Source of the DNA: Escherichia coli
Lineage (GTDB): Bacteria; Pseudomonadota; Gammaproteobacteria; Enterobacterales; Enterobacteriaceae
DNA: 64,000 nucleotides
Strand: one strand, 5' to 3'
NCBI RefSeq assembly: GCF_003334815.1
Contig: NZ_QOWO01000018.1
Below the pieces are notes generated by a model, which was not told where the DNA came from, searched no databases, and saw nothing but the letters and a program-made list of their open reading frames with translations. Below are positions 7,914 through 33,379 of this stretch, piece by piece. The translations under genes were made by a program, and so were the position numbers. The stretch's first letter is position 1; every line of letters starts with the position of its first letter.

Positions 7914-10358
7914 TTACCCCAGCGCCTCCACAATCACAATCGCCGCCCGTTCTCCCGCCTTGCCATCCATAAACGCATCGCAATAGTGATGGCGAATCTC
8001 CGTAAGCCGCGCCTGCACCGACCCCCAGTCAAACGCCTCTGACAACAAATAACGCAGTTCTGCAACATCATGAGCAACCGGCAATATTTCGCGGATTCGC
8101 TGGTCGGCGCTCTCTGCCGTGGAATAACTTTTCTCACCGTCGAGCAAATCATTCATGCCCGGAAAGTCGAGCAGGATCACCCGCTTATCAACGTGGATAG
8201 CATCGAAAATAAACCCGCTGTTATCGGTCAGCACGTAATCGGCTTTTGCCAGCAGCGCCAGCGTGTGGCGGGCGGAGTCGGTGCGCTGTTTTAAATGCCT
8301 GCGCACCAGGGCCAGCGATGCTGCTTCTTCCGGGCGTGAGCAGGTGCCATGGTGCAGTTTGCAAATCAGGTTCACATCACCGCTCAAGCGGCCCAATTTT
8401 TCAGCCCAGTGGGGCAGGGAGCTTAATGCGCCAAACGTTGGGGCATAGAGCACCGTAGGTTTACGGTAATCTGATTGGATGTTTTCCGGCAACGCGCGAT
8501 CGAACGTGCCGTTATGCCAGGCGTCGAAGCGCGGGTTGCCGACCACTTTTGCGCTGCCGAAATGCGCCAGCGCCTGCTGACTGTAGTGGCTATAACACAA
8601 AATGCTTTGGTAAAAACGATTCCAGTCGGCGTGGTTCCACGTCTCTTTGGCTAAGCCGTACATAGCGCGGATGTTCACCGCCGCCAGGCCATTGAGCGCA
8701 GGCGTGTGGTAGGGGCTGACCAGGCATTTCACCCGCTGACCATGTGTCTGCATTTCTGACAGACGCATACCTTTAAGCTGCGGATCGTCGATGTTTTTCA
8801 GTGTTTCCAGCATCTCATCAAGAAACGGTTTAAACACGCGGTCATTGATCACTAGTGTGCAGCTCTGCCCCTGCGCCTGTAGAGCGGTGATGATTGGGCG
8901 GTACAGCGTGTAGTGGAATGAGGTTTCCATAAAAAAGCCGATGGTATCGGCGATGGGTAATGTAGATGGCTTGGTGGCTACGGGTAACTTATTGAAATAG
9001 TGAGCAATATTATCAGTCGTTTTTTTCTCGATATCACTAAAACCCGGTCGCTGGTAGCAAAGGCTCGGGTAACAGGCCAGCCATTTGTCGGCGCGTAGCA
9101 GCGGCTGCCAGCAGGCTTCCAGCGAGTGCTCATCGTTGCTCATCTGCTGCGCCAGTTGCGGGTAGTAGCGGCTGTTCACCAGATACGCGCACACTTTGCG
9201 GCAGTCCCGCGCGTGCACCAGCCCCGGCAAACTTTTTAGCATCGTTCCCTGCGAAATTTCGCCACCGAGGATCATCACCTGCCAGGGAATTTTCGCCAGG
9301 CTCGCCAGCAGCGTGTTCAGTACCTGAATATGTTTCTCCTGCTTGAGAATAACCGCGTCATCTTCCAGCAGCAGGTAGTTTTGCCAGCCGTGCTGTTGCG
9401 CCAGGCGCAGCGCCTGTAAGTGCGACTGACGGCGGCCCCGTTGACCGTTTTCATCTTCACTGGCGGCAAGGCGGGTGATCTTCTCAGGTGGAATATGCAG
9501 CAATGCCAGTTCTTCACGGATCTGTTGTAAGCGATCCGGGCGTTTATCCAGATTCAGCAGAACGATCTGATCGATCGCCTGATGGTTGATCGCCTGGTGA
9601 TGAGTGGCGTTATGCAGACTCAGATAAGCATTGCGCAGCAGCGGATCGCGGACGATATCCGTAAGCGCCGCGTTTACTGGCGTGCTGGCCCCGAGAATAA
9701 AATCTTTATCAAAGGTGTTGTGACTATGCGAGATACACAGAATCGTGCGCTCGCCGGGCAGTTGCAGCGGGTTTACGCTGAAATTGTCGGTGAAACGTTT
9801 CTCTTCGCCTAAATTGCAATCATCGTCGTAACGGTGCTTTTTCAGGTAGTTACGGTGATAGCAAAAGGTGCCGTTGAGGATGTTATGCGGGCCAAAGCTG
9901 CGGCTTTGAAAGATGCGGTTGATGTGGCTGTACCAGATGGGGATCTGATCGGAGCCGGAGATGAGCGCCCGGTGTTTTTGCATCATGGCGATGGTGTAAG
10001 AGATTTTATCTGCCGGGTAGTAGTCGTCATCGTCCATGCAGAGGATGTATTCGCCGCGCGCCAGTTCGTTGAGCATGTTGCGTTTTTTGCCCAGCGGCAG
10101 TTTTTCCGGGTGATGGATGTAGCGGATGTTAAAGGCTTCCGGCGTGCCATTGGTCAGGCGGTCGATGATGTGTTGATGGCTTTGTGGGGAATCGTCGAGG
10201 ATGATGAGTTCGCGGCGGTCTGCCGGGTAATCCTGATAGCGGTACATATAGAGCAGGTACGGCAGGAATGCGCCGCGGTTCCAGGTTGGCGTGACGACGC
10301 TGACAAACGGTTTTTCGCGGTGGGTGTTGAGTGTTTTGATGATGGTTGGTGTTGGCAT
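7914..10358 (-). CDS. Large multidomain glycosyltransferase: GT2-like N-terminus, GT25-like middle region, TagB/TagF-like CDP-glycerol glycerophosphotransferase C-terminus
   Basis: 814 aa from ATG at 10358 (MPTPTIIKT); VSVVTPTWNRG...ILDDSP and ILCMDDDDYY (GT-A/DxD-like), central LNLDKRPDRL...LLLEDDAVI region, C-terminal ...YVLTDNSGFIFDAIHVDKRVILLDFPG resembling Glyphos_transf; ORF-track N-terminal extension to 10430 is read-through of a repeat and rejected. Confidence 0.7.
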   Translation of the reverse strand: MPTPTIIKTLNTHREKPFVSVVTPTWNRGAFLPYLLYMYRYQDYPADRRELIILDDSPQSHQHIIDRLTNGTPEAFNIRYIHHPEKLPLGKKRNMLNELARGEYILCMDDDDYYPADKISYTIAMMQKHRALISGSDQIPIWYSHINRIFQSRSFGPHNILNGTFCYHRNYLKKHRYDDDCNLGEEKRFTDNFSVNPLQLPGERTILCISHSHNTFDKDFILGASTPVNAALTDIVRDPLLRNAYLSLHNATHHQAINHQAIDQIVLLNLDKRPDRLQQIREELALLHIPPEKITRLAASEDENGQRGRRQSHLQALRLAQQHGWQNYLLLEDDAVILKQEKHIQVLNTLLASLAKIPWQVMILGGEISQGTMLKSLPGLVHARDCRKVCAYLVNSRYYPQLAQQMSNDEHSLEACWQPLLRADKWLACYPSLCYQRPGFSDIEKKTTDNIAHYFNKLPVATKPSTLPIADTIGFFMETSFHYTLYRPIITALQAQGQSCTLVINDRVFKPFLDEMLETLKNIDDPQLKGMRLSEMQTHGQRVKCLVSPYHTPALNGLAAVNIRAMYGLAKETWNHADWNRFYQSILCYSHYSQQALAHFGSAKVVGNPRFDAWHNGTFDRALPENIQSDYRKPTVLYAPTFGALSSLPHWAEKLGRLSGDVNLICKLHHGTCSRPEEAASLALVRRHLKQRTDSARHTLALLAKADYVLTDNSGFIFDAIHVDKRVILLDFPGMNDLLDGEKSYSTAESADQRIREILPVAHDVAELRYLLSEAFDWGSVQARLTEIRHHYCDAFMDGKAGERAAIVIVEALG

Positions 10359-10406
10359 GGTGTTTGGGTGAGTTAATGGGTGAATGTGATGAATGTGCGC
10401 GCTGAT

Positions 10407-19626: not shown

Positions 19627-19925
19627 TGAAAGTTAACGGCAGCGGCGGGATTGACGGCAGCGATGCGTTAATGGGGCCGAAGGTTCAGGCCAATGATATC
19701 AGGCAGGCCGCCGAACAGTTTGAGGCGATTTTTTTACGCAACATGCTGAAAGAGATGCGTAAAACCAACGAGTTGTTTGATTCGAAAGATAACCCATTTA
19801 ACAGCGATTCGGTGCGCATGATGCAGGGATTTTATGACGATGAGTTGTGTAACACCCTGGCGCAGCAGCACGGGATTGGGATTGCGGCGATGATTGTGAA
19901 GCAGTTGTCGCCGAAGCATAGGTGA
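19626..19925 (+). CDS. lfgJ: FlgJ homolog, rod-binding domain only (no muramidase domain)
   Basis: 99 aa; FEAIFLRNMLKEMRK rod-binding motif; gene ends before flgK with no glucosaminidase region. Confidence 0.6.
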   Translation: MKVNGSGGIDGSDALMGPKVQANDIRQAAEQFEAIFLRNMLKEMRKTNELFDSKDNPFNSDSVRMMQGFYDDELCNTLAQQHGIGIAAMIVKQLSPKHR

Positions 19926-19936
19926 AGCTCCGACGT

Positions 19937-20150
<214 letters not shown>

Positions 20151-20228
20151 GCACCCGGTTTACGGAATTTAAGAATCCCCATCTTCACGCCGCTTTTAAC
20201 CGGCACGATTTACCGGTAAGGATCCAAC

Positions 20229-21605
20229 ATGGACATGATTAACATCGGCTACAGCGGCGCATCAACCGCGCAGGTGGAGCTGAACGTCACGGCGCAAAAC
20301 ACCGCTAACGCCATGATCACTGGCTACACTCGCCAGGTGGCGGAGATCAGCACCATCGGTGCCAGCGGCGGTTCGCCGAACAGCGCCGGTAACGGCGTAC
20401 AGGTGGACAGCATTCGCCGCGTCTCCAACCAGTATCAGGTGAATCAGGTGTGGTATGCCGCCAGCGATTACGGCTATTACAGCACCCAGCAGGGGTATCT
20501 CAGCCAACTGGAAGCGGTACTAAGCGACGATAACAGCAGCCTGAGCGGCGGCTTCGATAACTTCTTCGCCGCCCTTAACGAAGCGACCACCAGCCCCGAT
20601 GATTCCGCCCTGCGCGAGCAGGTGATCAGCGAAGCCGGGGCGCTGTCGTTGCGTATTGATAACACGCTCGATTACGTCGACTCGCAAAGCACGGAAATCA
20701 TCAGCCAGCAGCAGGCGATGGTGTCGCAAATCAACACGCTCACCAGCGGTATCGCCAGCTATAACCAGCAAATTGCTCAGGCCGAAGCCAACGGTGATAA
20801 CGCCTCTGCGCTGTACGACGCCCGCGATCAGATGGTGGAAGAACTGAGCGGGATGATGGAAGTGCAGGTCAATATCGACGACCAGGGCAACTACAACGTC
20901 ACCCTGAAAAACGGTCAGCCGCTGGTGAGCGGGCAACAAAGCTCGACCATCGCGCTGGAAACCAACGCCGACGGCACGCCGACCATGTCGCTGACCTTCG
21001 CTGGCACCACCTCGACGATGACCACCGACACTGGAGGTTCATTAGGCGCACTGTTTGATTATCAAAACGATGTGCTGACGCCGTTGACCGACACCATCAA
21101 CAGCATGGCCTCGCAGTTTGCCGATGCGGTCAACAACCAGCTGGCGCAGGGCTACGATCTCAACGGTAACCCCGGCGAGCCGCTGTTTATTTATGACGCC
21201 AGCAATGCCGATGGCCCACTGACCGTTAACCCGGATATCACCGCCGATGAGCTGGCGTTTTCCAGTTCGCCGGACGAAAGCGGTAACAGCGACAACCTGC
21301 AGGCGCTGATCAACATCTCCACCGAACCGCTGGAAATTGCCAATCTTGGCAGTGTGACGGTCGGGCAGGCGTGCTCGTCAATCATCAGCAATATCGGCAT
21401 TTACAGCCAGCAAAACCAGACGGAAGTCGATGCCGCGTCCAATGTCTATTCCGCAGCGCAAAACCAGCAGAGCAGCGTCAGCGGCGTCAGCATGGACGAA
21501 GAGGCGGTTAACCTGATCACCTATCAACAAATTTATGAAGCCAATCTGAAAGTCATTTCCGCCGGGGCCGAGATTTTCGATTCGGTGCTGGAAATGTGCA
21601 GCTAA
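20229..21605 (+). CDS. lfgK: Flagellar hook-associated protein 1 FlgK homolog
   Basis: 458 aa; N-terminal MINIGYSGASTAQVELNVTAQNTANA and C-terminal axial-family helices. Confidence 0.8.
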   Translation: MDMINIGYSGASTAQVELNVTAQNTANAMITGYTRQVAEISTIGASGGSPNSAGNGVQVDSIRRVSNQYQVNQVWYAASDYGYYSTQQGYLSQLEAVLSDDNSSLSGGFDNFFAALNEATTSPDDSALREQVISEAGALSLRIDNTLDYVDSQSTEIISQQQAMVSQINTLTSGIASYNQQIAQAEANGDNASALYDARDQMVEELSGMMEVQVNIDDQGNYNVTLKNGQPLVSGQQSSTIALETNADGTPTMSLTFAGTTSTMTTDTGGSLGALFDYQNDVLTPLTDTINSMASQFADAVNNQLAQGYDLNGNPGEPLFIYDASNADGPLTVNPDITADELAFSSSPDESGNSDNLQALINISTEPLEIANLGSVTVGQACSSIISNIGIYSQQNQTEVDAASNVYSAAQNQQSSVSGVSMDEEAVNLITYQQIYEANLKVISAGAEIFDSVLEMCS

Positions 21606-21619
21606 GCGGGAGCGCGAAA

Positions 21620-22549
21620 ATGCGAGTAACCACCCAACAAACCTACGTCTCGATGACGCAAAGTTTTAATGATCTCTCCGGCGATCTGGCGCATGTGGTC
21701 GAGCAGATGGCAACCGGCAAGCAGATTTTGCAGCCGTCCGATGACCCGATCGCCGCCACGCGCATTACCCAGTTAAACCGCCAGCAGTCGGCGATTGAGC
21801 AGTATCAGAGCAATATCGACTCCGCGTCGGCGGGGTTAAGCCAGCAGGAATCAATTCTCGATGGCGTCAACAACAGCCTGCTGGCGGTGCGTGACGACCT
21901 GCTGGAAGCAGCGAACGGCACCAATACCGCCGATTCGCTCGCAAGTCTCGGGCAGGATATTGAGTCGCTCACCGAATCAATGGTCGCGGCGCTGAACTAT
22001 CAGGACGAAGACGGGCACTACGTGTTTGGCGGCACTATCAACGATCAGCCGCCGATTGTGGCGGTGGACGATGACGGCGACGGCGTGACCGATAGCTACA
22101 GCTATCAGGGCAACAGCGACCACCGCCAGACCACCGTTTCGAACGGCGTGGAAGTGGATACCAACGTGGCGGCGAGCGATTTCTTCGGTAGCAATTTAGA
22201 TGTGCTCAACACGCTCAATTCGCTCTCTCAGGAGTTGCAAGCCCCCAACGTTGACCCGGCAGATCCGCAGGTGCAGAGCGATATTCAGAACGCCGTTGAT
22301 GTGGTGGATACCGCTTCGGACGATCTCAACGCCTCAATTGCGTCGCTTGGCGAGACGCAGAACACCATGTCGATGCTGAGCGATGCGCAGACCGATATTT
22401 CTACCTCTAATGATGAGTTGATTGGTTCTTTACAGGATCTCGATTACGGCCCGGCGTCGATCACCTTTACCGGACTGGAAGTGGCAATGGAAGCTACTCT
22501 CAAGACTTACTCGAAAGTGAGTGAGTTGAATTTGTTCAGCGTTCTCTAA
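21620..22549 (+). CDS. lfgL: Flagellar hook-associated protein 3 FlgL homolog
   Basis: 309 aa from ATG 21620 (MRVTTQQ...), C-terminus ...ELNLFSVL; follows flgK. Confidence 0.75.
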   Translation: MRVTTQQTYVSMTQSFNDLSGDLAHVVEQMATGKQILQPSDDPIAATRITQLNRQQSAIEQYQSNIDSASAGLSQQESILDGVNNSLLAVRDDLLEAANGTNTADSLASLGQDIESLTESMVAALNYQDEDGHYVFGGTINDQPPIVAVDDDGDGVTDSYSYQGNSDHRQTTVSNGVEVDTNVAASDFFGSNLDVLNTLNSLSQELQAPNVDPADPQVQSDIQNAVDVVDTASDDLNASIASLGETQNTMSMLSDAQTDISTSNDELIGSLQDLDYGPASITFTGLEVAMEATLKTYSKVSELNLFSVL

Positions 22550-22565
22550 CTCTTTCAGGAACCGT

Positions 22566-23543
22566 ATGCAGGTCGGACTTACTTCTTCGTCACTCGCCAC
22601 CGGCAGCGCGCATAGCGCTGCGGTATCGTCGTCAACCGTTGCGCCCACTCAGGCGGTGCGGCAAAAACTCCCGGCGACGGCGAGTGAATATCCGGCCTCG
22701 CCGCTGATTACCACTCGCCCGCAGCGTTACAGCGTGCAGCTTAACGACCAGCTCACCACGTTGCAGCAGGCGGATCACTACCTCGGGCAACTGGAGCAGC
22801 AGTTGCTCGATTATCGTCACAGCCAGCGTAAGGGCGGGCAGGCGCAGAGTACGGCGCTGATGCAGATGCTGGACAAACGCACCGCGCTTTCCGGCGGTGC
22901 GGTAGACCGCCAGTTGCAGCCAGTGTTGCAGGGCGAGGCGCGGGTGACTTTTCACTCGCCGGATCTGGCGAATCTCGTACACAACCCCACGCCGGGAACG
23001 CGCATGTTCAGCGTCTCTGACGGGCGGCAGACTCAGCTTTCGGCGGTGATGCTGTCTGAGGATGACAGCGCCGCGCAGTATCAGACGCGGCTGACCAACG
23101 CCCTGCGCCGCGTGGGTGTGCAACTGCATCAGCAAGCGGACGGCATCAGCTTCTCCACCACCGAAAAGCAGTGGCCCAACATTGAAAGCACCTTAAGCGT
23201 GCGCACCGATGGTGATAAGTCGGCGTTTATGCCGCTAAAAACCTTTGCCGAACCGTCGCAGGCCGAGCGTTTAGCGCAAAGCCTGCAACAGGGCGGGGCA
23301 GGGATTTCCCAGATGTTAGAAAACATTAATCAGCAGCGCGCGCAAATGGCGGTGCAGCAGGAAAAAGCCCGCCAGTTGATCGACGGCATGTCCCGCTTCC
23401 CGCAAACGGAAAACGCCGTGCAGGCGTCGGAAAATCTCGGCGGCGTGTTGGATAGCGCGAATCATAACTATCAGGTGTTATTGCAGGCGGTGAATGGTCA
23501 GGCGCGAATTTCCAGCCAGACGGTGAGGAGTTTATTGGGATAA
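22566..23543 (+). CDS. lafW: Hypothetical flagellar protein with flagellin-type C-terminal helix (LafW-like)
   Basis: 325 aa; C-terminus ...VLLQAVNGQARISSQTVRSLLG resembles the flagellin/HAP C-terminal motif; N-terminus unlike flagellin. Confidence 0.4.
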   Translation: MQVGLTSSSLATGSAHSAAVSSSTVAPTQAVRQKLPATASEYPASPLITTRPQRYSVQLNDQLTTLQQADHYLGQLEQQLLDYRHSQRKGGQAQSTALMQMLDKRTALSGGAVDRQLQPVLQGEARVTFHSPDLANLVHNPTPGTRMFSVSDGRQTQLSAVMLSEDDSAAQYQTRLTNALRRVGVQLHQQADGISFSTTEKQWPNIESTLSVRTDGDKSAFMPLKTFAEPSQAERLAQSLQQGGAGISQMLENINQQRAQMAVQQEKARQLIDGMSRFPQTENAVQASENLGGVLDSANHNYQVLLQAVNGQARISSQTVRSLLG

Positions 23544-23548
23544 TTATC

Positions 23549-23588
23549 GGTAGGCCGGATAAGACGCGTTTAGCGTCGCATCCGGCAT
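23549..23588. repeat. REP element
   Basis: gtaggccggataagacgcgtttagcgtcgcatccggca. Confidence 0.8.
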
Positions 23589-23601
23589 ATATTGGCACTC
23601 A

Positions 23602-24444
23602 TCAGCACTTCTGCACAGTATTTAACAACTTCTCTAAATTCTGATACATCGCGCTATTAATATCGCTATTCTGCCACTCATCCACATTAAAGGTTAATTG
23701 CCAGCTACCGTTGCACTGGTTGCGCAGAACAATATCACTCTCCAGTCGGTTACGAACATATTTATAATAGGTTGTCATTGTCATATTATGCGCTGACAAT
23801 AAATTATCGAGTTTGTCTTTTCCTGGTGCGAGGGTTTGTGACAGTAACGGTGCGGAATTATTTTCTTTTCCAGAACTAAGGTGAAATATTTTTATTCTTG
23901 GGCTGTTAATTGACTCTTTTACCAGTTGCGGGGCGTCAGGTGTACTTTTCAAGTGTGAATACCCCACGGTCGAGCCAATAAATATAACAGCCGCGGTCAA
24001 CGCTAACCCCATCAGTCCTTTATGTTTTTTTCTAACAGGCACAGGCAGGGTTGTCGAAGATATCTCTCCTGGCACAGTTTCCTGTACCTGGTTGGTAATA
24101 ATCAGCGCTTCCGCAGGCGATGACTCCGGCAAAGACACATACTCTTTATTGCACAGGTAACCTTTTTTCGGGATGGTTTTAATAATGTTCTGTTGTTTGC
24201 CATCATCGTCGATAGCAACGCGTAATGCATGTATCGCCGTCGGCAGGCTGTTACCGCCGACAATGCGGTTCTTCCATACTTCGGCACATAAATAAGATCG
24301 CGATAAAACCACATCGGCATTTTTTGCTAATGTTTCCAGCAAAATAAAATGGTATTCGCCGAGACGACGTGTTTCACCCGTTTCGCAATGTATTAAGGCA
24401 TTAAGCGACGGGTCCATCCGCCAGTTGTTGATAATAATACTCAT
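23602..24444 (-). CDS. lafZ: ToxR/CadC-like membrane-anchored winged-helix transcriptional regulator (LafZ-like)
   Basis: N-terminal OmpR/PhoB-type winged-helix region (LLETLAKNADVVLSRSYLCAEVWKN...IKTIPKKGY), one predicted TM helix (GLMGLALTAAVIFIGSTVGY), C-terminal periplasmic region; start at 24444 preferred, 24495 possible. Confidence 0.6.
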   Translation of the reverse strand: MSIIINNWRMDPSLNALIHCETGETRRLGEYHFILLETLAKNADVVLSRSYLCAEVWKNRIVGGNSLPTAIHALRVAIDDDGKQQNIIKTIPKKGYLCNKEYVSLPESSPAEALIITNQVQETVPGEISSTTLPVPVRKKHKGLMGLALTAAVIFIGSTVGYSHLKSTPDAPQLVKESINSPRIKIFHLSSGKENNSAPLLSQTLAPGKDKLDNLLSAHNMTMTTYYKYVRNRLESDIVLRNQCNGSWQLTFNVDEWQNSDINSAMYQNLEKLLNTVQKC

Positions 24445-24857: not shown

Positions 24858-24884
24858 TTAAGTTTGCTCCCGAGGTGTCGTTTT
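24858..24884 (+). promoter_or_regulatory. Candidate sigma-28 promoter upstream of flagellin lafA
   Basis: TTAAGTTT-N11-GTCGTTTT (7/8 match at -35, weak -10) about 45 nt upstream of the lafA ATG. Confidence 0.25.
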
Positions 24885-24929: not shown

Positions 24930-25844
24930 ATGTTATCTATTAACACCAATAACGCCTCAATGGCCGCCGTTAATGCAATCAGCAAAAGCAGCTCTTCTCT
25001 GTCTACATCTATGGAACGCCTGGCGACAGGTAACCGGATTAACTCTTCTGCCGATGACGCCGCAGGCAAACAAATTGCTAACCGTCTGACAGCACAGTCC
25101 AGCGGTATGGATGTTGCGCTGAGCAACATCAATGATGCCACCGCGATGCTGCAAACCGCCGACAGCATGTTCGACGAAATGTCTGACGTGCTGGGTCGTA
25201 TGAAAGACCTGTCAACTCAGGCAGCGAACGGCACCTACAGCGACGACGATCTGCAGGCGATGCAGGACGAATACGACGAACTGGGCCAGCAGATGTCTGA
25301 CATGCTGCAAAACACCACCTACGGCGGCACCAACCTGTTCGGTGTTTCCGGCACCAGCAACACCGGTACTGACGGCCTGTTCCAGAGCGCGGTAACTTTC
25401 CAGGTGGGCGCGGAATCTTCCGACACCATGACCGTGAACATCTCTAGCCAACTGAACACGCTGGTGACTGACCTTTCTGCTATCAGCAACTCCTTCAGTG
25501 CGGATCAGGCAGACACCACAGGCACCGCAGGCGTTTCTGGCGGTACTGAACTGACTGCGTCTGGCTCGGCTAACCAGATGATCACCAGCATTTCTACCGC
25601 GATGGATGATGTTTCGCAGATCCAGTCCAAGCTGGGTGCGTCTATCAACCGTCTGAACGACACGGCTAATAACCTGACCAGTATGCAGGACAACACCGAA
25701 GTTGCTATCGGTAACATCATGGATACCGACTACGCTACGGAAGCGTCCAATATGACCAAACAGCAGGTGCTGATGCAGACCGGCATCACCATGCTGAAAC
25801 AGTCCAACAGCATGTCCAGCATGGTTTCCAGCCTGCTGCAGTAA
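24930..25844 (+). CDS. lafA: Lateral flagellin
   Basis: 304 aa; flagellin N-terminus MLSINTNNASMAAVN...RINSSADDAAGKQIANRL and C-terminus ...DTDYATEASNMTKQQVLMQTGITMLKQSN...SLLQ; AAGGAG RBS. Confidence 0.9.
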   Translation: MLSINTNNASMAAVNAISKSSSSLSTSMERLATGNRINSSADDAAGKQIANRLTAQSSGMDVALSNINDATAMLQTADSMFDEMSDVLGRMKDLSTQAANGTYSDDDLQAMQDEYDELGQQMSDMLQNTTYGGTNLFGVSGTSNTGTDGLFQSAVTFQVGAESSDTMTVNISSQLNTLVTDLSAISNSFSADQADTTGTAGVSGGTELTASGSANQMITSISTAMDDVSQIQSKLGASINRLNDTANNLTSMQDNTEVAIGNIMDTDYATEASNMTKQQVLMQTGITMLKQSNSMSSMVSSLLQ

Positions 25845-27473: not shown

Positions 27474-27866
27474 ATGTACCAAGTACAGGACGGCTATTCA
27501 CAATATAAAGAGATCGATCTCGCGGCGCGTACTGCGGCGGCATCGCCTCTGGAACTGGTGCTGGTGCTGTTTTCTGGCCTGATGGACGAGCTGGAACGCG
27601 CCAAAAGCCATATTGAAGGGCGGCGTTTCGAGAAGAAAGCCCAGAGCATCAATAAATGCATCGACATTCTCAATGCGCTTACCAGTTCGCTGGAGTTTGA
27701 AACCGGCGGTGAGCTGGTGGTCAACCTTTCGCGACTCTATGACCACTGCGTTTACCGATTGTATGAGGCCAGCGGCGAATTATCGGCAGAGAAAATCGAT
27801 GAAGTGATGCTGATCTTAAGCAACCTGCGCGAAGGCTGGGAAGGGCTTTCGGGCAAGCTGGGTTAA
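27474..27866 (+). CDS. lafC: Flagellin-specific chaperone FliS homolog
   Basis: 130 aa; ...EIDLAARTAAASPLELVLVLFSGLMDELERAK... typical FliS helical bundle. Confidence 0.8.
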   Translation: MYQVQDGYSQYKEIDLAARTAAASPLELVLVLFSGLMDELERAKSHIEGRRFEKKAQSINKCIDILNALTSSLEFETGGELVVNLSRLYDHCVYRLYEASGELSAEKIDEVMLILSNLREGWEGLSGKLG

Positions 27867-27870
27867 GACG

Positions 27871-28182
27871 ATGGAAAAACAACGCAGGCAACTTTTCGCA
27901 CTGGTCGAGGCGATGAATGAAGCCCTCGACAAGCAACGCTGGCGACGCCTTCCGGCACTGCATCAGCAGTTGATGCGCCAGTTTCACGATTACGCGGCGG
28001 CGGAAACCGACGCGGCGCAGTTCTGTGCGGTAAAGGCGCATTTGTACGGCGCGTTTAATGCCCTGATTAAACGGCGCGAGCAGCGCGCAGAAGTGTTGAA
28101 GGCGCGTATGGAACAGCATCAGCGGCATCAGGAAGGTGTGCTCGCCTACTCAATTGTTAATTTACTTTCGGAGAAGTCATGA
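27871..28182 (+). CDS. lafD: Small helical protein, possible FliT-like chaperone (LafD)
   Basis: 103 aa, position fliS-X-fliK; no strong motif. Confidence 0.4.
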   Translation: MEKQRRQLFALVEAMNEALDKQRWRRLPALHQQLMRQFHDYAAAETDAAQFCAVKAHLYGAFNALIKRREQRAEVLKARMEQHQRHQEGVLAYSIVNLLSEKS

Positions 28183-30463: not shown

Positions 30464-31327
30464 ATGCAAAAAATATTAGGTTTACTGGTGGTGCTCGGCT
30501 GCGTATTTGGCGGTTATTTTGAAGCGGGCGGGCAATTAGTGGCTATCTGGCAACCGGCGGAAATGATCATTATTTTGGGTGCCGGTTTCGGGGCGATGAT
30601 TATTGGTAACCCGAAACATGTGCTGAAAGAGATTGCCCATCAAATTAAAGGCGTAATCAGTAAAAAACAGCTCGGGCCGGAGTTTCAGCGCCAGCTATTA
30701 ATGTGCCTGTATGAGTTACTCGAAATGGTGCAAAACGGTGGTCTGCGCATGCTGGATCAACATATTGAGCAACCGGAAGAGAGCACCATTTTCCAGAAAT
30801 ACCCGCTGGTGTTAACCCAGAAGCGGCTGGTGACCTTTATTGCCGATAACTTTCGCCTGATGGCGATGGGTAAAATCGACGCCCATGAACTGGAAGGCAT
30901 TCTCGATCAGGAACTGGACACCGCGGAAGAGTCGCTGCTAACGCCGTCGCGCTCGCTGCAACGTACCGCCGAAGCGATGCCGGGGTTTGGCATTTGTGCG
31001 GCGGTGTTGGGCATCATCATCACCATGCAGTCGATTGACGGCTCTATCGCCCTGATTGGCCTGAAAGTGGCGGCAGCGCTGGTGGGGACATTTTTAGGCG
31101 TCTTTATCTGCTACTGCCTGATGGACCCACTCGCCAACGCCATGGAACAACAGGCGCGGGCAGAACATTCTTTGCTGGAATGCGTGCGTACCGTGCTGGA
31201 GGCGCAGGCAGGCGGCAAACCGACGCTGCTGGCGGTGGACGCCGGGCGTAAGCTACTGCATCTGGCGTCCAAACCGACCTTCGCCAACCTCGACGCGTGG
31301 GTGAATGCGATGCTGGAGCAAGAATAA
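30464..31327 (+). CDS. lafT: Flagellar stator protein MotA homolog
   Basis: 287 aa, four TM helices, MotA/TolQ/ExbB family. Confidence 0.85.
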   Translation: MQKILGLLVVLGCVFGGYFEAGGQLVAIWQPAEMIIILGAGFGAMIIGNPKHVLKEIAHQIKGVISKKQLGPEFQRQLLMCLYELLEMVQNGGLRMLDQHIEQPEESTIFQKYPLVLTQKRLVTFIADNFRLMAMGKIDAHELEGILDQELDTAEESLLTPSRSLQRTAEAMPGFGICAAVLGIIITMQSIDGSIALIGLKVAAALVGTFLGVFICYCLMDPLANAMEQQARAEHSLLECVRTVLEAQAGGKPTLLAVDAGRKLLHLASKPTFANLDAWVNAMLEQE

Positions 31328-31329
31328 GC

Positions 31330-32253
31330 ATGAGAAAGACGGGTAACCGCCGCGATCGTGGGGCAAAAACCACCATCGTCCGGCGGCAGATCAAAAAGAA
31401 TCATGCCGGGCACCACGGCGGGGCGTGGAAGGTGGCGTTCGCCGACTTTACTTTGGCAATGATGGCGCTGTTTATGACGCTGTGGATTGTCAACAGCGTC
31501 AGTAAATCCGAGCGTGAAAGCATTATCGCCGCGCTGCACGGGCAGTCGATTTTTAACGGTGGTGGGCTGTCGCCGTTAAATAAAATCAGCCCGTCTCATC
31601 CGCCAAAACCTGCCACCGTGGCGGTGCCGGAAGAGACGGAGAAAAAAGCGCGTGATGTGAATGAGAAAACGGCGCTGCTGAAGAAGAAATCCGCCACCGA
31701 GCTTGGTGAGCTGGCAACCAGTATCAACACCATTGCCCGTGATGCGCATATGGAAGCGAATCTGGAGATGGAGATTGTTCCCCAGGGATTACGCGTGCTG
31801 ATTAAAGACGACCAGAACCGCAATATGTTTGAACGCGGCAGCGCGAAGATTATGCCGTTCTTTAAAACGCTGCTGGTGGAGCTCGCGCCAGTGTTCGACT
31901 CGCTCGATAATAAAATTATTATTACCGGGCATACCGATGCGATGGCCTACAAAAACAATATCTACAACAACTGGAACCTTTCGGGTGACCGCGCGCTTTC
32001 GGCTCGTCGGGTGCTGGAAGAGGCCGGAATGCCGGAAGATAAAGTGATGCAGGTAAGCGCAATGGCGGACCAGATGCTGCTGGATTCCAAAAATCCGCAA
32101 AGCGCGGGCAACCGGCGCATTGAGATTATGGTGCTGACCAAAAGTGCGTCCGATACGCTGTATCAATACTTTGGTCAGCATGGGGATAAAGTGGTGCAGC
32201 CGCTGGTGCAAAAGCTGGATAAGCAGCAGGTGCTTTCGCAGCGAACGCGTTAA
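31330..32253 (+). CDS. lafU: Flagellar stator protein MotB homolog with OmpA-like peptidoglycan-binding domain
   Basis: 307 aa from ATG 31330; TM helix WKVAFADFTLAMMALFMTLW with conserved Asp; C-terminal NLSGDRALSARRVL...GNRRIEI OmpA-like motif. Confidence 0.85.
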   Translation: MRKTGNRRDRGAKTTIVRRQIKKNHAGHHGGAWKVAFADFTLAMMALFMTLWIVNSVSKSERESIIAALHGQSIFNGGGLSPLNKISPSHPPKPATVAVPEETEKKARDVNEKTALLKKKSATELGELATSINTIARDAHMEANLEMEIVPQGLRVLIKDDQNRNMFERGSAKIMPFFKTLLVELAPVFDSLDNKIIITGHTDAMAYKNNIYNNWNLSGDRALSARRVLEEAGMPEDKVMQVSAMADQMLLDSKNPQSAGNRRIEIMVLTKSASDTLYQYFGQHGDKVVQPLVQKLDKQQVLSQRTR

Positions 32254-32323: not shown

Positions 32324-33379
32324 ATGCGTAAAATCATTCATGTGGATATGGACTGCTTTTTCGCCGCAGTGGAGATGCGCGACAATCCCGCCCTGCGCGA
32401 TATCCCTATTGCTATTGGCGGCAGCCGCGAACGTCGGGGGGTGATCAGCACCGCCAATTATCCCGCGCGTAAATTTGGCGTACGTAGCGCTATGCCGACA
32501 GGGATGGCGCTCAAATTATGCCCACATCTCACCTTGCTTCCGGGGCGCTTTGACGCCTACAAAGAAGCCTCAAATCATATCCGTGAAATCTTCTCGCGCT
32601 ACACCTCGCGCATTGAACCGTTGTCACTGGATGAGGCTTATCTCGATGTCACCGATAGCGTCCATTGCCACGGTTCTGCGACCCTCATCGCCCAGGAAAT
32701 CCGCCAGACAATCTTCAACGAGCTGCAACTGACGGCGTCTGCGGGCGTGGCACCAGTAAAGTTTCTCGCCAAAATCGCCTCCGACATGAATAAACCCAAC
32801 GGCCAGTTTGTGATTACGCCGGCAGAAGTTCCGGCATTTTTACAAACCTTACCGCTGGCAAAAATCCCCGGCGTCGGCAAAGTCTCAGCGGCAAAACTGG
32901 AAGCGATGGGGCTGCGGACCTGCGGTGATGTACAAAAGTGTGATCTGGTGATGCTGCTTAAACGCTTTGGCAAATTTGGCCGCATTTTGTGGGAGCGTAG
33001 TCAGGGGATTGACGAACGCGATGTTAACAGCGAACGGTTGCGAAAATCCGTCGGCGTGGAACGCACGATGGCGGAAGATATTCATCACTGGTCTGAATGT
33101 GAAGCGATTATCGAGCGGCTGTATCCGGAACTTGAACGCCGTCTGGCAAAGGTAAAACCTGATTTACTGATTGCTCGCCAGGGGGTGAAATTAAAGTTCG
33201 ACGATTTTCAGCAAACCACCCAGGAGCACGTCTGGCCGCGGCTGAATAAAGCTGATCTAATCGCCACCGCGCGTAAAACCTGGGATGAACGCCGCGGCGG
33301 GCGCGGTGTGCGTCTGGTGGGGCTGCATGTGACGTTGCTTGACCCGCAAATGGAAAGACAACTGGTGCTGGGATTATGA
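32324..33379 (+). CDS. dinB: DNA polymerase IV (Y-family translesion polymerase)
   Basis: 351 aa; [33 protein letters not shown] hallmark N-terminus. Confidence 0.95.

Follow-up and report, generated by a model that had tools for sequence, protein, structure and literature searches.

LafW of the Escherichia coli Flag-2 locus is a probable flagellin-derived protein that lacks the ND0 helix

The axial subunits of flagella carry paired N- and C-terminal helices, ND0 and ND1 among them, that build the inner tube. The C-terminal segment of flagellin is also the binding site of the chaperone FliS, and Helicobacter pylori has a FliS co-chaperone, HP1076. For the Flag-2 locus of E. coli 042, Ren et al. 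2005 is reportedly the source cited for naming one product, LafW, a "putative hook-associated protein". LafW is described in these words, and as having no counterpart in the primary flagellar locus, in accounts that give Flag-2 cluster 3 as lafWZABCDEFSTU (PMC6993521, PMC7526173). Because lafW has carried its name for about twenty years, the gene itself is not new; no experiments on LafW were found in the literature searched. Flag-2 is reported to be the only flagellar system of the motile genera Budvicia and Tatumella (PMC6993521), and the gene table published for the functional Plesiomonas lateral cluster names LafA, Maf-5, FlgL, and FlgK and does not list LafW (PMC4481668).

Here, we compare these systems with a Flag-2 locus contained in a 64-kb stretch of E. 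coli DNA, the whole of which we refer to as the window. The 325-aa protein that the first-pass annotation had placed at 22566-23543 is encoded there, on the plus strand, by an ORF of 325 codons and a stop, with the translation quoted in that annotation; the gene is genuine, and RefSeq labels its product a "hypothetical protein". We identify this ORF as lafW, a gene of the lateral-type (Flag-2) flagellar locus of E. coli. UniProt entries that are 94-96% identical to its product are named "Lateral flagellar hook associated protein LafW" or "flagellar hook-associated protein", and both NCBIfam assignments and RefSeq neighbors place the gene directly 3' of lfgL and 5' of lafZ and lafA, which fits the expected start of Flag-2 cluster 3.

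The two genes immediately upstream on the same strand are lfgK (20229-21605, plus strand), encoding FlgK or hook-associated protein 1 (NCBIfam TIGR02492, 347 bits; RefSeq), and lfgL (21620-22549, plus strand), encoding FlgL or hook-associated protein 3 of the short, 309-aa lateral type (NCBIfam TIGR02550, 196 bits; RefSeq start). Farther upstream of lfgK, NCBIfam identifies FlgM, FlgA, FlgB-J, and a 99-aa rod-binding FlgJ. On the other side, lafW converges with lafZ (23602-24444, minus strand), a CadC/OmpR-type winged-helix regulator (NCBIfam CadC-like, E 2.6e-8; RefSeq) whose name is taken from the literature, and beyond it lies the lateral flagellin gene lafA (24930-25844, plus strand; NCBIfam NF033376, 667 bits). 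The region 3' of lafA encodes, by NCBIfam, FliD, FliS, a FliK-like protein, FliL, a FliA-type sigma factor, MotA, and LafU; the FliS-type export chaperone is the product of lafC (27474-27866, plus strand; NCBIfam TIGR00208, 79 bits). The gap between lafW and lafZ, the VR2 position, holds no cargo genes in this strain. It contains a palindrome (23549-23590), identified by reading the sequence, that resembles two copies in the lfgJ-lfgK gap and that we take to be a REP-type element from its likeness to E. coli REP sequences.

The start codon of lafW lies 16 nt past the lfgL stop and is preceded, at a distance of 4 nt, by a ribosome-binding site, AGGAA (22557-22561, plus strand), that can be read directly in the sequence. 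The Met-Gln start of the protein is kept family-wide, which confirms the start codon. Over its 978 bases the gene matches the chromosomes of many E. coli strains with 100% identity; it is carried by 1276 of 5426 complete E. coli genomes and is full length in 1272 of the 1276 carriers. When the window allele is compared with one E. coli allele of approximately 94% identity, dN/dS is 0.088 (42.5 synonymous versus 13.5 non-synonymous changes), and the neighboring genes of the same allele pair yield 0.020 (lfgK), 0.040 (lfgL), 0.008 (lafA), and 0.167 (lafZ). Together with orthologues in other genera, these data establish a coding gene, and lafW is under purifying selection. Minus-strand ORFs that overlap it (e.g., 22632-23135) were discarded because conservation and the pattern of synonymous and non-synonymous changes favor the plus-strand frame.

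The flagellin-like C-terminus that had been noticed in the initial reading of this ORF is real. Residues 310-325 (23493-23540, plus strand), GQARISSQTVRSLLG, fit the flagellin signature QAN-5 residues-VxxLL both in spacing and in distance from the end, and conservation, motif search, and alignments all mark them as a flagellin-type (CD0-like) motif. Expressed as Q[AS][NRQK]-5 residues-[VIL]xxLL at the terminus, a regular expression that was written post hoc, the motif is found in two of the 427 window ORFs of at least 60 aa, namely LafW and LafA, and in none of ten lateral FlgL proteins. These last 16 residues are also the best-conserved stretch of the LafW family, at 2.23 bits per column, and in family profiles the last ~90-120 residues align to flagellin CD1 and CD0, in register to the final residue. 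The terminal segment may act in chaperone binding or in axial packing.

The same annotation had described the N-terminus and body as unlike flagellin. This stands for residues 1-51, which have no flagellin counterpart, and does not stand for residues ~55-150, which correspond to ND1 and the adjoining beta-hairpin. Two different LafW family profiles, searched against PDB sequences, ranked flagellins at the top (E 0.065-0.1), with Pseudomonas aeruginosa FliC, Vibrio flagellin D, and Bacillus subtilis Hag as the leading matches. The alignments run through CD1 (aLeqigeqRqqlasqQekarqlidgm versus ALAAIDAQRADLAAVQNRFKNTIDNL) to the last residue, and a second, weaker, colinear segment falls in ND1. 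Similarly, hhalign was used to compare a 113-member LafW alignment with eight diverse flagellins drawn from the window, a metagenomic relative, and annotated replicons. LafW 60-152 matched LafA 68-172 (P = 0.0014), an alignment that spans LNDQLTTLQQADHYL versus N.NDG.S..QTAEGAL as well as the FQVGA/GETI beta-hairpin, and LafW 240-324 matched LafA 208-303 (P = 0.04), ending one residue short of both C-termini. The two matches are mutually colinear, with an hhalign probability of only 18%. An enteric-only LafW alignment compared with single LafA, LfgL, and LfgK sequences gave nothing significant, the LafA match falling in the expected ND1 register, and neither Pfam Flagellin_N (PF00669) nor Flagellin_C (PF00700) matched any of the 113 family members. 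The LafW query itself has no Pfam-A or NCBIfam family, and Pfam-A returned none for the 113 relatives.

Since none of these similarity values is conventionally significant alone, and since Pfam matched 0 of 113 members, we take homology to flagellin as probable and not as proven. The remote homology and structure comparison that the initial reading had put forward as a check did recover a flagellin-like ND1, CD1/CD0, and concordant models, with sequence similarities that are all below conventional significance. LafW therefore probably has a flagellin-like architecture, and the concordance of several weak signals suggests membership in the flagellin superfamily. With Flagellin_N and ND0 absent and the Flagellin_C match below significance, we term the protein flagellin-derived and do not file it as a flagellin or a FlgL. 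A reading of LafW as a diverged FlgL duplicate was rejected because hhalign of the family against an alignment of ten lateral FlgL proteins returned a probability of 3%, an essentially negative result. The inserted domain weakly resembles the outer domains of flagellin and FliD. Its similarity to the anticodon-binding domain of threonyl-tRNA synthetase (E 0.2-0.9) was put down to chance.

The predicted structures fit these sequence similarities. A full-length AlphaFold (AF2) model of LafW has a pLDDT of 72, and the protein has a folded, high-confidence domain. Residues 1-51 (22566-22718, plus strand) form a disordered, Ser/Thr/Ala/Pro-rich N-terminus with pLDDT below 50 and, at 0.89 bits, show the lowest conservation anywhere in the family. 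They are followed by a long helix at residues 52-88 (22719-22829, plus strand) that resembles the second half of flagellin ND1a; by a beta-hairpin and a conserved alpha/beta insert, the latter a D2-like outer domain, at residues 108-236 (22887-23273, plus strand); and by two helices at residues 247-309 (23304-23492, plus strand) that resemble flagellin CD1 in both the profile alignments and the AF2 secondary structure. In the model itself, the alpha/beta insert occupies ~110-230, helices run from 232-241, 247-276, and 282-309, and a short terminal helix covers 317-324. The outer domain is conserved at least as well as the CD1 helices, and the E. coli and Citrobacter proteins lack two family-wide motifs, ETLxFS and GEGxRFP.

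LafW has neither ND0 nor the first half of ND1, in models and sequences alike, and all 113 family members are without an ND0 helix. The ~53 residues that precede the ND1-like helix contain at least two prolines in 113 of 113 members (median 5), compared with 0-1 prolines in the first 60 residues of flagellin. Lacking ND0, LafW is therefore unlikely to be a normal self-polymerizing axial subunit. Its N-terminus could serve as an export signal.

LafW extends well beyond E. coli. Orthologues of 96% to 36% identity occur in Citrobacter, Atlantibacter, Leminorella, Siccibacter, Pseudescherichia, Ewingella, and others, and homologues are present in Budvicia and Tatumella. A profile built from 26 orthologues matches ~249 clusters (50% identity) at E <=0.001, and nearly all of the full-length matches are 330-380 residues long. 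A Foldseek search of AFDB50 likewise recovered full-length look-alikes at 20-26% identity, both in Betaproteobacteria (Chromobacterium, Azoarcus, Crenobacter, Burkholderia latens, Massilia, Acidovorax, Roseateles, and Paludibacterium) and in some Gammaproteobacteria (Steroidobacter, Pseudomonas straminea, and Halopseudomonas). In all seven contigs examined for distant homologues, the lafW-like gene lies directly 3' of a gene for a ~300-aa FlgL, with FlgK before FlgL wherever that region is present; one of the seven preserves the full E. coli order of lafW, a convergent Trans_reg_C regulator, flagellin, fliD, and fliS. The laf region of Azospirillum (flgK, flgL-like, flagellin, and fliD) contains no ORF that matches the LafW profile. 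Because this cluster and the functional one of Plesiomonas are without an annotated LafW, the protein is not a universal structural requirement of lateral flagella. A tblastn search of PLSDB plasmids with a betaproteobacterial homologue returned no match. An Aeromonas caviae locus reached through a flagellin match is not beside FlgL, an observation that says nothing on lateral clusters.

The position of lafW also bears on its predicted expression. A sigma-28-like motif, TTAAG-N15-GCCGCTTT (20169-20196, plus strand), is located 33 nt before the lfgK start and is a probable late promoter for lfgK-lfgL-lafW. A pattern search places a second copy, TTAAG-N14-GTCGTTTT (24858-24884, plus strand), before lafA. 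The pattern TTAAG-N13-16-GYCGYTTT occurs only at these two places in the 64-kb window, a count that is circular because the pattern was built post hoc from the lfgK and lafA upstream sites. The motif resembles the sigma-28 consensus, TAAAGTTT-N11-GCCGATAA. A search with the classical consensus at three mismatches gave 85 matches, was too permissive to inform, and was replaced by the lfgK/lafA motif. An independent metagenomic locus (L006) has the exact pattern again ahead of flagellin and, ahead of flgK, TTAAT-N15-GTCGCTTT, which carries one mismatch; this recurrence supports late, LafS-dependent expression of lafW alongside the hook-associated proteins and flagellin. A scan for sigma-70 promoters and terminators found none separating lafW from lfgL, so that the simplest reading puts lafW at the 3' end of an lfgK-lfgL-lafW transcript. 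Overall, lfgK-lfgL-lafW is probably a late (sigma-28-type) operon with a predicted promoter.

A junction or cap-associated component and a secreted regulator were the two roles first proposed for this protein, and they largely coincide with the putative function already annotated in the literature. Its likeness to flagellin, its place in an operon with flgK and flgL, and the late-promoter motif agree with that proposal; the missing ND0, the dissimilarity to FlgL, and the presence of a separate FlgM in the locus weigh against parts of it. We give about an even chance to a reading in which LafW is a late, exported, flagellin-derived accessory protein and not a canonical polymerizing subunit. LafW would be a diverged derivative of the flagellin superfamily that has kept part of ND1, the D1 beta-hairpin, a D2-like outer domain, CD1, and the C-terminal CD0 segment, and in which ND0 and the first half of ND1 would have been replaced by ~50 disordered, proline-rich residues. 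It would be produced with the hook-associated proteins after completion of the hook-basal body. A late-substrate chaperone may then bind its C-terminus. LafC, a FliS-type protein, is the most plausible candidate, given that FliS attaches to flagellin at the C-terminal segment; the FlgN-type LfgN is a less likely partner because the end of LafW is unlike that of LfgL. The disordered N-terminus and the flagellin-like C-terminus could together steer LafW to the lateral flagellar type III export apparatus. Once exported, it may serve at the distal hook, the junction, or the nascent filament or filament base, where its conserved outer domain would give it a minor accessory or assembly role.

Alternatively, LafW might stay in the cytoplasm as a flagellin mimic, with a C-terminus that binds LafC or another flagellin-binding factor and thereby tunes flagellin export or synthesis, and would not be part of the flagellum at all. 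It would then work as the FliS co-chaperone HP1076 or other partner-switch regulators do. HP1076, however, is no more similar to LafW than many helical bundles are, an N-terminus that is disordered, rich in Ser/Thr/Ala, and conserved at its start looks more like a type III substrate than a cytoplasmic regulator, and a cytoplasmic mimic offers no obvious role for a strongly conserved outer-type domain. We regard this alternative as unlikely, if still worth weighing.

It is more doubtful that LafW is a canonical third hook-associated protein that forms a stoichiometric ring in the hook-filament junction, as FlgK and FlgL do. The existing name, "putative hook-associated protein", points this way, as do the D1-like helical bundle, the CD0-like end, and a predicted shared transcript with flgK and flgL in each of the loci examined. 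Axial subunits, however, need paired terminal helices, and the ND0 helix is present in 0 of 113 members; profile comparison of the family shows no similarity to lateral FlgL and nothing notable with FlgK; and its conservation is inverted relative to axial proteins, with an outer domain conserved at least as well as the CD1 helices. The Plesiomonas lateral cluster, moreover, has no listed LafW (PMC4481668).

A secreted regulator of the FlgM type, which on leaving the cell by way of a finished hook-basal body would lift inhibition of late gene expression, could make use of a disordered N-terminus and of placement in a late operon. The locus, however, encodes its own FlgM (12035-12313, minus strand), which scores above the NCBIfam cutoff (45.5 versus 40.75 bits), and LafW is a folded protein of 325 aa with a high-confidence domain and no FlgM match in Pfam or NCBIfam scans, all of which makes this role very improbable. 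Finally, the idea that LafW is a decaying flagellin or FlgL duplicate without function in E. coli, which could appeal to the view of E. coli Flag-2 as often cryptic, its expression being undemonstrated there, and to the loss of ETLxFS and GEGxRFP from the E. coli and Citrobacter proteins, is largely refuted by the low dN/dS between E. coli alleles, the full-length gene in almost every carrier genome, and a family maintained at a fixed position in both Beta- and Gammaproteobacteria, and we give it next to no credence.

The accessory-protein reading can be carried further, though only tentatively. The LafW family (~250 clusters in Beta- and Gammaproteobacteria) is absent from Pfam and NCBIfam and lies directly 3' of flgL in the loci examined. 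LafW might be the founder of a widespread but unrecognized family of N-terminally truncated flagellin paralogues that would constitute a part, so far undescribed, of one flagellar lineage and act as a non-polymerizing adaptor, or "fourth HAP", docked by CD1/CD0 at the junction or filament base with the outer domain on display; we see this as a possibility that falls well short of an even bet. Four points appear to be absent from the literature examined: the truncated-flagellin architecture, the conservation of the outer domain, the extension into Betaproteobacteria with fixed synteny behind flgL, and the common late-promoter motif. Our analysis gives a named but uncharacterized protein a concrete, testable picture: flagellin-derived, without the polymerization helix, with a flagellin-type end and a conserved outer domain, and distributed well past the Enterobacterales at a fixed position after flgL. 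Should LafW prove to have a structural or assembly role, the hook-filament region in a large group of flagella would gain a part, and the protein could help account for the differences between Flag-2-type systems and the classical lateral flagella found in Vibrio, Aeromonas, and Plesiomonas. A chaperone-titrating mimic would instead represent a new mode of regulating flagellin export.

Among described systems, the nearest is the Flag-2 LafW of E. coli 042 (CAH19144.1), the same gene in the same position between lfgL and lafZ, with nothing material different; strain 042 carries toxin/antitoxin cargo between lafW and lafZ, whereas the present strain has the REP element there and no cargo. HP1076 (FliS_cochap, PF16522) has no significant LafW match, with one of 113 members reaching E 0.012, and LafW is much larger and bears an alpha/beta domain and a flagellin-type C-terminus. 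FlgL ends in ...LSLFDVL, unlike the flagellin-type end of LafW, which also has no Flagellin_N match. With flagellin (FliC/LafA), LafW probably shares a colinear ND1-like helix with the N.ND..S..Q.AE..L pattern, a FQVGA/GETI-like beta-hairpin, an outer domain inserted at the corresponding point, and CD1 helices, and it has an ending of the form QAN-5 residues-VxxLL; the predicted D1-like bundle and outer-domain fold appear to match as well. It differs from flagellin in that ND0 and the first half of ND1 are absent, ~50 disordered, proline-rich residues standing in their place, and in that the outer domain, hypervariable in flagellin, is conserved in LafW.

The 325-aa LafW protein of the window (22566-23543, + strand) belongs to a wider family of about 249 clusters in Beta- and Gammaproteobacteria, and two motifs that are near-invariant across that family are altered in E. 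coli and Citrobacter (residues 144-148 and 212-219). The family motif ETLxFS reads GTRMFS in these LafW proteins, and GEGxRFP is replaced by TDGDK with a short deletion. Despite both departures, lafW is under purifying selection.

Upstream of lafW, the FlgJ of Flag-2 comprises just 99 aa (19626-19925, + strand), with the rod-binding part present and no muramidase domain. Genes in the FlgJ position of distant LafW-containing loci are also short (106-140 aa), and four of five match the rod-binding Pfam family; in the Plesiomonas lateral cluster, which has no LafW, FlgJ is 328 aa (PMC4481668). A short FlgJ may co-vary with LafW as a marker of the lineage.

Between lfiJ and lfgN, the variable region holds two cargo ORFs, both on the minus strand. 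The first (838 aa; 7914-10430) has an N-terminal, WcaA-like GT2 glycosyltransferase domain (E = 4e-9), and the second (322 aa; 10537-11505) shows weak similarity to FliB, the flagellin lysine-N-methylase, with an E value of 3.6e-11 that misses the family cutoff. Both are candidate flagellin-modification genes of Flag-2. Neither the presumed lfgN (142 aa; 11594-12022, - strand) nor lafD, in the FliT position (103 aa; 27871-28182, + strand), matched an NCBIfam family at the thresholds used. The last Flag-2 gene is lafU (31297-32253), after which the region beyond the locus begins with dinB, encoding DNA polymerase IV (32324-33379, + strand). At this site E. coli K-12 retains only remnants of lfhA and lafU.

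Loss within the locus and inconsistent naming were both seen in other E. coli genomes (NZ_CP128613.1 and NZ_CM173937.1). Strain WL297 carries just the first 382 nt of lafW, and because this remnant abuts lafU, it indicates that Flag-2 is internally deleted there. Another genome has lafW annotated as "flagellar biosynthesis protein FlhF", and RefSeq calls the gene variously hypothetical protein, hook-associated protein or FlhF. Of the 1276 lafW copies in E. coli, two come from plasmid-labelled records. Two PLSDB entries (NZ_AP026896.1 and NZ_CP104632.1) comprise an Aeromonas caviae "plasmid" of 4.9 Mb, evidently a chromosome, and a 100-kb E. coli "plasmid" with a 99.7% identical lafA. Such cases may reflect errors of assembly or labelling.

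In the literature, "lafWZ" has been described in a paper on ST131 as a putative toxin/antitoxin system (PMC4637896), which appears to be a misreading; the E. coli W paper places the toxin/antitoxin pair of strain 042 between lafW and lafZ (PMC3032704).

Within the window, palindromic repeats of REP/BIME type occur at two places. Two copies (19930-20150) fill most of the 300-nt gap between lfgJ and lfgK, and a single copy (23549-23590) lies directly 3' of the lafW stop codon. The position after lafW is occupied by a repeat in the window, whereas in other strains it holds cargo such as a toxin/antitoxin pair.
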